NCBI GenBank assembly: GCA_018268835.1
Contig: JAFDVU010000006.1
Location: 3,961 to 67,960 of the forward strand
Direction of reading: 5' to 3'
Source of the DNA: Acidobacteriota bacterium
Lineage (GTDB): Bacteria > Acidobacteriota > Terriglobia > Bryobacterales > Bryobacteraceae
DNA: 64,000 nt
A program made the position numbers and the translations under genes. Of the stretch, positions 29,501 to 35,500 are shown piece by piece. The notes below the pieces were generated by a model that was not told the origin of the DNA, ran no database searches, and saw only the letters and a program-made list of their open reading frames with translations. Numbering within the stretch: the first letter of the stretch is position 1; each line of letters begins with the position of its first letter.

Positions 29501-32500
29501 TGGGCTACGCCATGTGCCTGATGGACGATGGCACCGGTACCGGAACCAAGGTCGCGCGATACTACATCGATACCGACGGCAACTACAACGAGCTTTACAC
29601 CTACGCGCTGTACTCTCCTACCGGCGGTATCATCGAGTCGTCCACCTTCACCGTGAAGGTGATGCTGGGGACGCCCGCAAACCCCGGCGCGGTCCCGGTC
29701 ACTCCCGCCACGCCCAACAGCGTCAACCCGCAGGACCTGGTCGCGCAAATCAACAAGGTCTCGTCACTGATCTATGCCGCGTTCGGACCGGCCAGTTCGG
29801 GGCAGCCGCCCGCCTTCATCCCCATCCAGGCGATCGGCACCGGCGTTCAGGCCGGACCCATCCTCGGACCCCCCGGGGTCAACGGTTACGCCCTGAACGT
29901 CGTCACCGGGGCGAACCGGCAACCCGTGCAGATCTCGCAGATTTACTCGGGCATCTCGACGTACCCGATCGCCGGCACCTCCACCGTGGTCCCGATCAAT
30001 CCGAAGACCGGCAAAGCTGTGCCGTTTTACGGTTCGATCTCGCACGGCCTGGACAAACTGGTCGGCTCCTATGGCGGAAATGGGCTGGGCAGCCTGATCG
30101 GTCTCTCCTTCAGCGTCGCCTTCCAGGGCTCGGCCGGTGACAGCGGGGTCTTCTACACGTACAACGCGATCGCCAATTCGGTCATGGATTCCACCGGCAA
30201 GTCGGCCACTCCGGCCGGCGGCCAGTATTTCGTCGATGCCACCGATTCGTCCAATACCATCTACGCCGTCGTCACTCTTCCGAAATTCACGCTCAACGGA
30301 AACACTTACGCCGTCAACCTCGGCACCACGCTCCCGGACGGCGTGACGTCCCGCTACAGCCTGGTGGTCGGCGGGAAGAGCTATCTTTTCGGACCCGACA
30401 ACGCCCACGTCACTGTGGACCGGACTGTGTTCACCTTCAACAGCGGGGCCACCGTGAGCTATGGCGACATCGACCTGCCCACCGGCAGCGAAGCGCCCAC
30501 GCCGATCCCGCTCACGCCCTTCTCGGTCGCGGGAGGCGGGGTCGTCAAAACCGTCGACGTCTTCAACAATGCGGCCGGGTTGAAAACGATCAGCCTCTCG
30601 GTCGCCGGCCGCCTCTACAATTACGATCCGGTCCACGGCACGGTCGTTATCACTCAGGGCGCGAACACCGCTACGGTGCAACTGCAGACCGGGCTTACCT
30701 TCGCGTCGAATAGCGGCTACGGCTACGTCATCGGATTCAATGCCGGGTATACCGTCAACGGCAAGCCGACCTTGCTTTATAACGCGACCACGGCGGGTTC
30801 CCCGGCAACCTACTCGCTCATGACCAACCCGCAGATGTTCACCATCGACGGGAACTTCTACGTCTTCGATCAGGACAGCAGCGGCAACTACGTCAGCGTC
30901 ACCGGAGACGGCCAGACCTGCCCGGTCAATCCCTATCAGTTCTCACTCAACGGCGCCATCTACATCATCAACACCAGCGTCCAGCCGAACACCGTCGTGG
31001 GTGGCGGCAACGTCTACACGATGACCGCCGGGAACACCCAGTTCGTCATCAACGGCGTACAATACACCGTCGCGCTGAAGAGCGGATCGCTGAACGGCGC
31101 CACCATATCCGGACAGTTCAACATCACGCAGGGCAACGTGGTCGTGATCGAGAACTACGTCTACCAGCTCGACACGCTCAACGGGCAGATCGTCGGCAAT
31201 GGGACCACTTATCCGTTGACCACGTCCGGATTCACCTACACTATCACTACTGCCGACCGCAGCTTCACCGTGACCACGAAACCCAACGCCACCACGGTGA
31301 CCATCGGCAACGTCGTCTACCTGATCAACAACACCACCGTCGTCGGCGACGGCGTCACGTACCCGATCCTGGTGTACCGGACATTCGCCGACGGCGCCAG
31401 CAAGTTCAGTGTCGGGCTCGACGGCGTCGCGTACGTGCCGCAGCCTTTCACCCTCTCCGGTTCGGCGCCGTACACCAAAGCCACCTTCACCGACGGTGCG
31501 ACGTTCACGGTGAACGACATCGCCGCCTTTGACGGAACCAATTACTTCCTGATCTCCGGCGCGCCCGCGCAATTCAAGACGCCGGCGCTTACCTACACGC
31601 TGCGCACCGACGGCGTCTCCATCGCAGTCGGCAGCGGGAAAACCTACATCGTCAACACCACAGGACCTCTCACGCCCAACCAGTTCACCTTCGGCACCGA
31701 GACCATATTCTTCGGCCGTCCCGGCGACCTCGCGGCGTTCGACGGCGTCCACTACTACGCCATCAGCAACGGGCAGTTCACCGACTCCAACACCGGCCAC
31801 ACCTACACACTCAGCGGAAACACTGCGGTGAGTCAGGGCAACAGCTACGAGATCTTCAGCAATCTCGGCCAGAATCCTTACTTCGAGGTGCCCGGCGGGC
31901 CGACCTATTACGTCAACGTGCCGGTCGCCGATACGGGTTCCGCGAGCGGCGACATCTTCCGTGTCTTCCCGGTGACCAGCGGCCAGTTCACGATTCCGCT
32001 CGCTTACACCGTTACGGTGACGGGGAGTTCCGCCACGGTGAACGCAGCGACCATCGTCGGCGGCCCGGCCGCGGCGCCCACGCTTACTGCGTCGGGGGGC
32101 AAACTCACAGGTGGCCATTTCCAGGACCCTGTCACTAAGATCGTCTACACGTGCGTCGTCGATGGCTCGTCGATCTCCTTCATCGATTCCAACAACGCGG
32201 TCTACGGGGTCTCGACCGCCGGCGCGACGAACAACTTCGTGGCCAATGTGTTCGTGACCACCGCGATCCCCCTGGCCGTGGACAGCCAGCCGACCCCGTC
32301 GGTCTACCCCATCGCCAACAACCAGTTCATCGCCGGACCGGCGACGTACACAATCAACGTGCCGGTCGCCTACCAGAACGCCGCAACCGGACCATACTGG
32401 CAGATGGTGAACGGCCGCTTCATCGTGCCCAAAGCCGACCCGGTCTCCGACATCGCCTACACGGTGAAGGGCGGCAGCGTCACGAAAGGCTATGTGATCT

Positions 32501-35500
32501 CGGGCGACGACGAGTTCTCCGTCGACGGCAACGTTGTTTACACCGTGAACGCCGTCAACGTAGTGCGAGCGACGAACCAGGATACGCTTGCAGGGAACGT
32601 CCTCACGGCGGGACCGCTCAAGTACACACTCAATTCCGGGACGTCACAGGCTTCTTTCCAACCGGCCGGCCTCAACTATGACGCCGCCGGTAAGCAGTTC
32701 ACGGTCTCCTACAACGGCCTCTCCGTGACGTACACAGTCGCCGGCGCCACGGTCACGGACAACCGGAATCCCGTAAACGTGTTCACCGCAAAGCTCTCGG
32801 GCTCGCAGGTTACCTTCACCGACACGCTCTCGACAGTCACGTTCAGCTTCGACGGCAGCGGTAACAATCCGATCACCGCGTCTTTCGTCTATACGAACGA
32901 CTTCTTCATCGACGTGATCAACGAAGTCACCTACTACATCTCCGGAACCAAAGTAGAAGCCATCTCCTACCTTCCGGAGTCCACCCAGTACGCCTTTGTT
33001 CCCGCCGACGGCAAGACCTATCTCATCCACTACAACGACGTCAGCGTCGTGTTCCCCGTCATTTCGGGCCAGAACGTCAACGCTGGTATCGCGACTGTCG
33101 GTTCCGACACGTTCACGGTCCACGTAGATGAAGTTGATCCGACGAGCGGCGGCCCGGCGATCCCGATCAATCTCAATTCGTTCGAGATCAACGGCAACCT
33201 GTACACCATCACCGGCACCCCCACGGGATCAGACTACTCGTCCTGCTTCGTCGCCGGCGACCTGATGGCGCCGAAGAAATTCGCCTCGGCGAAGACGTTC
33301 CAACTCACCGACCCCGCAGTCACGTACACGCTGCAACTCGATGCGAACAACCTGCCCACGGCCGTCACCGCCACGTTCAAGGTGAAGACGAGCGAAGACC
33401 TGATCCTCGTCAACGACGACGTGTACGTCGTCACCTACAACACGGTAAGCACCGGATCCCTGCTCGGCCAGGGTCGGTCTTCCATCGCCATCGCGAACTC
33501 GAGCTTCACCCTGAGCAACCCCTTCGATTCGACGAAGGCTAAGTTCATCTTCGCCGACTTGAACATCTTCGACGCCGCGTCCGTCGTCGGCCAGTTCAAC
33601 GTCTACCTGGCGCCCACCTTCTTCCTGGGAATCACCACCTACACGCTCGACCCGGTGAACCTCGTGGTGATGGACAACAACAAGCGGCCGTTCCCGCTGC
33701 TGCCGAACCCGACGATGTTCAGCATCAACGGCTTCAACTACGTCATCGACACGAACCGCGTGCCGCACGCCATCATCGGTAACAACAACGTGTCGCCCCT
33801 CGCCACCGATGTCACAGTCGAGGGCGGCCAGCCCGTCCCCAACTCGACCTTCACGCTGAACGGCCAGGTCTTCAAATACACCGAGGACACCGCGCACAAC
33901 ATCCTGGCCATTACGGGCACGAAGAGCTACGTCATCAGCCAGCCAGGCCACACGGTCAAGCTCGATTCCAGCCTCGTCTTCACGCTCAGCACCACGCCGC
34001 CCGCCGCCGGCACCTACCCCGGCACCGTCGTCCCAATCGGCACGGTGACTGCGGGCACCACTGTGCTCAACGTCTATGCTGGCACGCCCGAATCGGGTTA
34101 TAGCGACTTCTTCATGTACAAGAACGTGCTGTACACGCTCGTCAAATCGGGCAGCACGTACGTCGCCGTGCAGAAGTCGTATACCGTGTACGCCGCGAAG
34201 CCGGTCACCAACCAGCAGCAACTGGCGGTCTTCGACCTCGGCGGCACCGCGTACATGGTCACCGATGGAACCACGGCCGGAGCCGCTTCGCCGGCCGGTA
34301 TCAACCCGGGAACCATGTGGGCCCAGACCGCGAATACGACGCAGGAACTGCAATTCGGCCTGGTTTACGGATTCACCGCGCAGCCCATCAACGTCACGCA
34401 ATCTACAGCCGGAGTCTTCCAGTTCCTGATCACGGACTCTACCGGCAGGAACACCCTCTATGACATCGTCTATACGCGTGGCGGGAACGCCAACATGGTC
34501 AAGGTGGATATTCCCAATTCGATGCCGACGTTCACGCAGAACCTCCAGTTCGGCTTCGTGAAGTCGAGCCCGCTCACCTTCGAGACAGGAGGCTACAACG
34601 CCTTCACCGCCGCGGTCGATGAAACCGCACAGCCCTACGAGAGCTTCGCAGGTGCCTACCGGACGCCGGTGGTCTCCACCTCCAACGCGGTCGACTCGCT
34701 AATCAGTGCGCAGGGTGACTTCAGCCTCGAGTTCTGGCACTCGCTTCCCCTGTCCGACATCCGGGACTACCATCCGGTGACGTACAACTCCAGCACGCAA
34801 ACCCCGCCGCTCGTCTACTTCGTCGACGTGGACTTTATGAGCCGCTCGGAAATCTTCGTGCAGATCAATAACACGGTGATGCGCGCCAAAACCACGCCTC
34901 CGGTTCTAACTTCCGGATGGCGCCATTTCGCGCTGACGTATGAGCAGCCCTACGTGATGCTCTGCGACGGCGCTCCGTTCGAAGTAAAGCAGGGAACGAA
35001 TTACAACTTCAATCGCGAATTCAGCATCGCGATTACGTTCTCCGCCTCCGACGTAGTCTCCAAGCAGGGCCTGCTGTACAAAGGAACCGGGTCGAGTATC
35101 CCATCGCCCGACTTGAGCATGTCGTACAGCGTCGCCATCCGCGACCAGATGGTGACCCTGACGGTCACGGACGGCTCGCTGACCACAACCGAGTTCCAAG
35201 GCCCTGCGGTCCTGAAGCCAGACAATTTCTACCAGGTGATCATCGTGAAGCAGACGGCCACCGCATCCGCCAACTCTGGCAGCGCCGAGCCGTACGCTCC
35301 TCCATTCGACCCGAACGAAATCGGGAAGGCGAATGACTCCGGATCCACGGTGAACACGTCCGGCTTCCCGTCGGGCTCCGGCTCCGTCACGATGTCCGGG
35401 GTCAAGCCGCACGACGCTTCGTCCGTCCCGACCCTGAGCAACCTTCTCAACAACCTCCATACCGTGCCCAGCCAGGGCTACACCGTCACCATTTCGGTTC

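Follow-up and report, generated by a model that had tools for sequence, protein, structure and literature searches.

Scaffolds built from beta-hairpin repeats are an established type of protein architecture, and two described groups are among those closest to the region reported here. Choline-binding and clostridial CROP repeats are regular, with a period of ~20 amino acids (aa), and the units of YD/Rhs shells (the Rhs cores of type VI secretion systems, TcB-TcC and teneurin) measure ~20-21 aa. We describe a hairpin-repeat region in the centre of a giant protein that is encoded in a stretch of 64,000 nucleotides from an Acidobacteriota bacterium (assembly GCA_018268835.1, contig JAFDVU010000006.1, positions 3,961 to 67,960), and this whole stretch is called the window below. 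The region shares with the choline-binding and CROP repeats a short beta-hairpin unit, conserved aromatics and a proposed carbohydrate-binding role. It shares with the YD/Rhs shells long antiparallel beta-hairpin runs within a very large protein, scattered Y-x-[YF]-D-x-x-G-like strings and the strongest local structural matches, along with the propellers of LRP2 and DDB1. Nevertheless, this scaffold matches no catalogued repeat or domain family. We consider it somewhat more probable than an even chance that the region forms a rigid beta scaffold within a giant binding protein that is horizontally mobile and whose function we infer from its composition and predicted folds.

The hairpin-rich segment at nucleotides (nt) 30200-34300 of the window is not a separate feature. 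It corresponds to aa ~2222-3589, the central third of a single giant open reading frame (ORF).

Giant ORF, 23554..39426, + strand: 5,290 aa, 563 kDa, isoelectric point (pI) 4.8; holds the entire repeat region (ORF list and translation).

The open frame itself spans nt 23533-39426 on the + strand and comprises 5,297 codons, and alignment with the N-termini of ~100 full-length homologues places the start at the ATG at nt 23554.

A sequence-only reading of the window had described this segment as a ~1,350-aa array of degenerate beta-type repeats marked by two motifs, h-x-[LIV]-[ND]-G-x-x-[YF] (motif 1) and x-Y-T-[LIV] (motif 2). The 8 motif-1 strings and 7 motif-2 strings that it listed are all found where it had placed them, and they share one reading frame. 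A regular expression for motif 1 has 9 matches in the 5,297-codon frame, and all of them fall within aa 2252-3440. The mean in composition-preserving shuffles of the region is 0.32, and none of 2000 shuffles reaches 9. There are also 18 occurrences of x-Y-[TS]-[LIV] in the region compared with 3.6 expected, a count that is again reached by 0 of 2000 shuffles.

Evidence for homology between the units comes from a self-comparison with hhalign, in which a 94-sequence family profile covering aa 2001-3800 served as both query and template. The strongest off-diagonal alignments (P 2e-8 and 7e-8) represent a tandem shift of ~48-70 aa inside aa 2459-2766. Two further alignments relate distant parts of the region, namely aa 2436-2511 with aa 3363-3447 (P 1e-6) and aa 2437-2570 with aa 3188-3328 (P 6e-6). 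When the module at aa 2435-2570 was used to search a 5,297-column profile of the entire protein, all copies were located within aa 2203-3462 and none in the rest of the protein, and column-reversed controls gave P values of at least 0.37. The parts of the region are as follows.

Hairpin-repeat region proper, 30139..33918, + strand: aa 2203-3462, the span enclosing all detectable module copies (hhalign).
Module copy 1, 30139..30438, + strand: aa 2203-2302, contains KFTLNGNTYAVNL (hhalign, P = 1.3e-4).
Reference module and tandem ~34-aa double-hairpin units, 30835..31368, + strand: aa 2435-2612 (hhalign; copy at aa 2553-2612, P 1.6e-4).
All-beta block with longer hairpins, 31387..32949, + strand: aa 2619-3139, bears x-Y-T-[LIV] strands (AlphaFold2).
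Module copy 3, 33094..33516, + strand: aa 3188-3328, contains SFEINGNLYTITG (hhalign, P = 1.3e-7 over 130 columns).
Module copy 4, 33619..33918, + strand: aa 3363-3462, contains MFSINGFNYVIDT and TFTLNGQVFKYTE (hhalign, P = 3.3e-8 for aa 3363-3447 and 1.2e-2 for aa 3440-3462).

In its architecture the region is a mosaic: a 75-135-aa module, wherein hairpins of ~17 aa are paired into units of ~34 aa, occurs in four diverged copies, and these copies flank the 520-aa block of longer hairpins. The tandem signal that follows the reference module runs on to approximately aa 2766 (nt 31830). There is no significant repeat homology for the all-beta block at aa 2619-3139 (P values of at least 0.02 only in the self-comparison), and the middle part of the region at aa ~2770-3190, about 420 aa in length, is hairpin-rich by prediction and carries no significant repeat signal. 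An 18-aa hidden Markov model (HMM) built on the tight motif recovers the 8 seeds from which it was made and, beyond these, only sub-noise variants, so that no regular array can be defined by the short motif alone. Thus, the repeats described by the sequence-only reading are real, as judged from self-comparison values of 2e-8 to 6e-6 that the reversed controls do not approach. However, unit-to-unit homology is detectable over about 700 of the ~1,350 aa, and the array is one part of the giant ORF.

There are no tandem repeats at the nucleotide level (0 rows from TRF). The sole trace of internal duplication in the DNA is a pair of 38-nt segments with 74% identity, located at 31892-31929 and 32333-32370, which encode G-P-T-Y-Y-V-N-V-P-V-A and G-P-A-T-Y-T-I-N-V-P-V-A. 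Because the DNA retains nothing beyond this pair, the repeat units are old and diverged rather than products of recent duplication, as had been proposed from the sequence.

The region is also exceptionally constant among its relatives. An alignment of 102 full-length homologues has a gap fraction of 0.00-0.03 over aa 1500-3700 and a mean identity of 57-81% per 100 aa, and the number and position of the repeat units do not vary. The most conserved stretch is aa 2501-2600, with 81% mean identity. The ratio of nonsynonymous to synonymous substitution rates is 0.09-0.18 in six pairs, for the whole gene and the central part alike, and the hairpin region is under purifying selection. The constant number and position of units together with this selection indicate an ancient, internally duplicated and rigidly constrained beta-meander scaffold, and not an expandable tandem array.

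The structure of aa 2230-3429 was predicted with AlphaFold2 from an alignment of 28 homologous segments translated from the homologue loci. The resulting model has a mean predicted local distance difference test score (pLDDT) of 68.9 and a predicted template modelling score (pTM) of 0.42, and is composed of 53.5% strand and less than 1% helix. It contains 42 tight hairpins with two-residue turns, for which the turn dipeptides are mostly NG (7), GG (5), GA, GS, DG and GN. Over aa 2619-3139, pLDDT is mostly 75-92 in blocks of 10 residues, with the exception of two lower blocks. Six of the seven motif-1 sites located inside the modelled segment form tight hairpins whose turn is N-G or D-G, and the eighth site (aa 3439) lies just outside. 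Motif 2 marks the strand that follows the turn, and therefore motifs 1 and 2 are two views of one hairpin signature. In the model this signature, comprising a strand (h-x-h), a turn ([ND]-G or G-G) and a second strand (x-x-Y-x-h), is a tight beta-hairpin. The beta character that had been assigned to the motifs is in agreement with the prediction, as is their irregular spacing, since the predicted hairpin turns are 6-82 aa apart with a median of 23 aa.

A Foldseek search of this model against the PDB yields small E-values to multi-propeller proteins (LRP2/megalin, DDB1, LRP4/6), to Rhs cores and to teneurins. The corresponding template modelling (TM) scores are 0.05-0.09 with a root-mean-square deviation (rmsd) of about 50 Å, and the matches reflect local beta-meander likeness only. 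There is no meaningful match to the hairpin region in the viral fold library BFVD, where TM does not exceed 0.09. The structure prediction that the sequence-only reading had suggested gives an all-beta region full of tight hairpins, with a pTM of 0.42 and with fold matches whose TM scores are all below 0.1.

One possibility is that each ~34-aa double hairpin serves as the four-stranded blade of a small-bladed beta-propeller, wherein tectonin-like propellers would be located at aa ~2435-2620 and ~3188-3462. A tandem period of 34 aa accommodates four short strands, as in the tectonin-like propeller lectins, and multi-propeller proteins (LRP2/megalin, DDB1, LRP4/6 and BT4673) account for many of the top Foldseek matches. 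However, there is no match to any propeller-family HMM in Pfam, the TM scores are about 0.05, and AlphaFold2 closes no propeller in a part of the model where its confidence is low (pLDDT 30-57). We regard this arrangement as fairly improbable.

Alternatively, the hairpins might spiral into a large hollow cocoon that encloses part of the protein, as is the case for Rhs effectors, TcB-TcC and teneurins. The Foldseek matches to Rhs cores (8qjb, 8qjc, 8qja and 7pq5) and teneurins have E-values of 7e-9 to 1e-6 and probabilities of up to 0.99, there are long twisted hairpins within aa 2619-3139 in addition to the scattered YD-like strings, and one homologue carries the NCBI label 'RHS repeat domain-containing'. 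Against such a shell, the TM scores of 0.06-0.09 at an rmsd of about 50 Å amount to local likeness only. There is no RHS_repeat match in the giant protein or in the 29 members of the central-region alignment, and a six-frame scan of the genome with RHS_repeat (PF05593) finds 10 repeats elsewhere and 0 in the giant gene. The hairpins of 17 or 34 aa with N-G turns also differ from YD units, the DPxGL (or DPxG[LIV]) autoproteolysis motif is not conserved in the family, and there is no variable C-terminal toxin. Instead, the C-terminal 800 aa are conserved (56-79% identical across the family) rather than polymorphic. A shell of this type is therefore improbable.

The source genome does encode a protein of the shell type at another locus. 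This 2,570-aa protein (L051:2172-9884, - strand; G000:C360) combines SpvB, FG-GAP, TcdB_toxin_midN and RHS-repeat parts, and is a fused TcB/TcC-like shell unrelated to the giant gene. When the central-region alignment was compared by hhalign with the RHS part of this SpvB/TcdB_midN/RHS protein, the probability was 0.7%.

The sequence-only reading had itself likened the array to choline-binding, cell-wall-binding or clostridial CROP repeats. Under this explanation the hairpins would stack as a left-handed superhelical solenoid, and their aromatics would bind carbohydrate or choline-like ligands. In its favour, the region has an architecture of that general kind, in which hairpins and loops carry conserved aromatics, the segment FTIDGNFYVFDQDSSGNYVSVTG resembles a choline-binding or CROP repeat by eye, and weak matches to RicinB_lectin_2 (5 of 29 members, E 0.004) and CBM_5_12 (3 of 29) hint at lectin-like hairpins. 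However, the period is an irregular 17 or 34 aa, with the ~34-aa tandem confined to aa 2435-2766, and is not a regular ~20 aa. The copy number is fixed and the G-W/Y-Y-F signature is lacking. Furthermore, there is no match to the cell-wall and choline-binding models (CW_binding_1, Choline_bind and the PF01473/PF19127 type generally) at E ≤ 1 in the protein of the window or at E ≤ 10 in the 29 members, and no choline-binding or CROP structure is present among the 50 Foldseek PDB matches listed. The proposed relationship found no support, and we consider such a solenoid very unlikely.

The same family-wide Pfam scan, which covered the 29 members of the central-region alignment at E ≤ 10, returned only one recurrent weak match. 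This is the N-terminal hairpin of Lsr2 (PF11774), found in 20 of the 29 members at sub-threshold values (best E 2.9e-5). The Lsr2 hairpin, of the FGLDGVTYEIDL type, mimics motif 1, wherein F-x-[LI]-[DN]-G-x-x-Y-x-[IV]-[DN]-[LT] corresponds to the N-terminal dimerization hairpin. The likeness is at the level of a single hairpin motif, whereas Lsr2 is a small nucleoid protein, and homology is not claimed. CROP/choline-binding membership and Rhs membership both fail on the features tested, and what stays is an architectural resemblance among hairpin repeats.

No match to the whole giant protein was found in Pfam (E ≤ 1), NCBIfam, PHROGs or PADLOC. Profile searches with three segments and phmmer searches with two segments against PDB sequences were likewise empty, with a best E-value of 0.088. 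A word-indexed search found 126 matches, of which 103 have lengths of 5,000-5,650 aa and show 57-85% identity over the region. The homologues have neither Pfam domains nor informative names, apart from the single RHS label mentioned above. An exhaustive HMMER scan of 1.84 billion representatives found 159 matches in total, and the best 150 of these are all collinear members or fragments of the same family, with no other architecture among them. The giant-protein family is an orphan. Our literature searches found no paper on it.

Directly downstream of the hairpin region, and outside nt 30200-34300, there is a second structural element that bears on function. It was found in a second AlphaFold2 model, covering aa 3581-4780.

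Two ConA/LamG-like jelly rolls, 34660..36102, + strand: aa ~3710-3910 and ~3980-4190, with a low-complexity insert between them (AlphaFold2 and Foldseek).

This pair is the sole confident part of the second model, with pLDDT of about 55-93 in blocks of 10 residues, and the remainder at aa 4190-4780 is below 45 throughout. Foldseek gives target-normalised TM scores of 0.54-0.58 to single-domain targets (neurexin LNS, sialidase CBM40 and pentraxin; entries 3bop, 6er3 and 9k6n), and its further matches include laminin LG4-5 pairs and the lectin-like jelly rolls of several large proteins. The predicted fold of aa ~3710-4190 is thus that of a jelly-roll beta-sandwich, as in the LamG/ConA group (laminin LG, neurexin LNS, sialidase CBM40 and pentraxin). 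Unlike members of that group, the pair is not recognised by the Pfam Laminin_G_3 HMM at E ≤ 1, and hhalign against this model aligns the closing strand only (P 0.018). The predicted pair provides indirect support for a binding or lectin-like role of the hairpin array.

Carriers of the gene with a taxonomic name include Acidobacteriaceae, Terriglobia, Stellaceae, Acetobacteraceae, Dyella acidisoli, Paraburkholderia, Tepidisphaeraceae and a metagenome-assembled genome (MAG) from an archaeon of the Nitrososphaerota. The hosts belong to the Acidobacteriota, the Alpha-, Beta- and Gammaproteobacteria and the Planctomycetota, plus this one archaeon. The gene is single-copy in the source genome. It was searched for in 60 relatives, of which 18 belong to the same genus, and in 400 further Acidobacteriota genomes, and none of these yielded it. 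In a maximum-likelihood tree of the region the phyla are intermixed with 96-100% support, and the Acidobacteriaceae appear in three places. The archaeal copy groups beside Stellaceae, with support of only 83/87. It is 74% identical and is located at 622 kb of a 714-kb contig (G461:C2, about 615-632 kb) that also bears TFB genes at 480 and 495 kb, and a TrmB-type regulator flanks the giant gene there. Across the compared loci there are no conserved neighbour genes and no secretion operon, and the flanking DNA shares nothing between loci. The giant gene has been transferred horizontally on its own among distantly related soil bacteria and has even reached an archaeon.

In the window, the gene resides in an island of 30.9 kb that is associated with a tRNA gene.

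tRNA-Pro(GGG), 21763..21840, + strand: its 3' 51 nt (21790-21840) form the left copy of a direct repeat (ARAGORN, repeat search).
Right copy of the tRNA-Pro 3' fragment, 52712..52762, + strand: 51 nt, 98% identical, 30.9 kb from the left copy (repeat search).
ISL3-family transposase remnant, 22293..22817, - strand: between the tRNA and the giant gene (Pfam DDE_Tnp_ISL3 and Zn_ribbon_ISL3).
IS110-family transposase, 52845-53912: just outside the island, past the right repeat.

A recurring copy of a tRNA 3' end is the usual mark of an integrated island. Because a second, 51-nt copy of the tRNA-Pro 3' end is present at a distance of 30.9 kb, we conclude that a tRNA-Pro island encloses the giant gene, which lies 1.7 kb downstream of the tRNA and behind the dead ISL3 element. 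Alongside the giant gene, the island carries a GH4/permease operon, a PIG-L protein and a TonB-type receptor. At some further loci the giant gene is flanked on both sides by direct repeats that are short and imperfect (73-155 bp, 82-84% identical), for example at 13-167 and ~18859-19013 of locus L017 and in the flanks of L001 and L027. These repeats may be att-like scars or dispersed repeats. Many carrier contigs are 17-22 kb in length, which had raised the idea of a small replicon. This is a selection effect, since a contig must be longer than 16 kb to hold the gene, and the idea is also ruled out by the lack of shared flanking DNA and by the presence of the gene on long chromosomal contigs.

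The transfer of a gene that is alone in its island across phyla and domains, as occurs for defence and phage genes, causes us to consider a cytoplasmic or phage-derived function in which the beta region is unrelated to binding. The protein might then be, for example, a defence protein or a domesticated tail fibre, and the lack of a signal peptide would be in keeping with this. However, the searches noted above gave no PADLOC or PHROG match, the flanking genes are not those of a phage, and the BFVD matches are weak. In addition, the family alignment reveals no conserved HExxH, P-loop, GxSxG or CxxC anywhere in the giant protein, and no conserved NTPase, nuclease or protease motif. This explanation seems quite improbable to us.

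The explanation that we favour is that of a giant binding protein acting outside the cytoplasm, for which the hairpin region would form the extended structural body, either a stalk or a sheet. Such a protein could be an adhesin or could bind receptors in the manner of a toxin. Contact with the ligand, most likely a glycan, would be made by the lectin-type jelly rolls and possibly by the aromatic-rich hairpins too, and the protein might leave the cell by release on lysis or by export through a system encoded elsewhere. An extracellular binding role is proposed because of the composition, the LamG-type fold and the all-beta character of the protein. The central region has the fewest charged residues and the highest beta propensity in the protein (K+R 3.8%, pI 4.6) and contains 3 of its 23 Cys residues, a composition that is typical for non-cytoplasmic beta proteins. 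The giant RTX adhesins of type I secretion systems (LapA and MpIBP type), which are characterized by RTX nonapeptide repeats, near-identical Ig-like tandem repeats and ABC/MFP genes next to them, differ from this protein, which has no HemolysinCabind or Ig-type Pfam match, no nucleotide tandem repeats, and no transporter genes in its flanks here or at other loci.

Several observations weigh against this explanation. There is no signal peptide or transmembrane helix in the 5,290-aa protein (the best 19-aa Kyte-Doolittle mean is 1.78), and there are no adjacent secretion genes in the flanks within the window. The extracellular role is inferred from composition and from the LamG-type fold, and the ligand is putative. 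The confidence of the AlphaFold2 model of the hairpin region is moderate on both of its global scores, and falls to pLDDT 30-57 over aa 2415-2615, which is the most repetitive and most conserved stretch. In three dimensions the hairpins may be arranged as a ribbon, solenoid, propeller or shell. With regard to mobility, the host range rests on MAG taxonomy, and the archaeal copy has at least 4 frame breaks that reflect either nanopore errors or decay and pseudogenization.

Perhaps the protein is self-sufficient, a 563-kDa protein of a new kind that needs no partner genes and no dedicated secretion system, and whose hairpin mosaic is a new fold. It might, for example, be a binding or toxin-like particle that is released by lysis or ingestion and directed against grazers or competitors. 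If this were true, self-sufficiency would explain how a 16-kb single gene could spread across phyla and into an archaeon with 57-85% identity and constant length. We consider this unlikely.

The giant protein belongs to a very large protein family that is unnamed in the databases, and that is strongly conserved and under purifying selection, yet sporadic among its hosts. It crosses phylum and domain borders as one gene of 16 kb. The combination of conservation and sporadic mobility points to an important, portable and unstudied function in microbes of acidic soil and peat. Cultured carriers exist (Dyella acidisoli and Paraburkholderia strydomiana), in which this function is directly testable.

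Some features outside the hairpin region also deserve mention. There are two conserved Cys patches in the otherwise Cys-poor protein, namely C-R-R-x-N-W-x-A-D-C-H at aa 1328-1338 (nt 27514-27546) and G-C-P-A-V-G-R-C-G-P...T-V-C-D at aa 4259-4284 (nt 36307-36384), which might serve as metal or disulfide sites. Hydrophobicity peaks in the Gly-rich and highly conserved segment LGAVGGLGVVSGLLVDTFV at aa ~1509-1527 (nt 28057-28113), which might be a membrane-interacting loop. The N-terminal fifth (aa 1-1100, nt 23554-26800) is the most variable part of the family, with 33-67% identity and indels. Within it there is a near-invariant short block, WAPAWFYSAL-WLG, at aa ~45-65, which could be a targeting or docking element.

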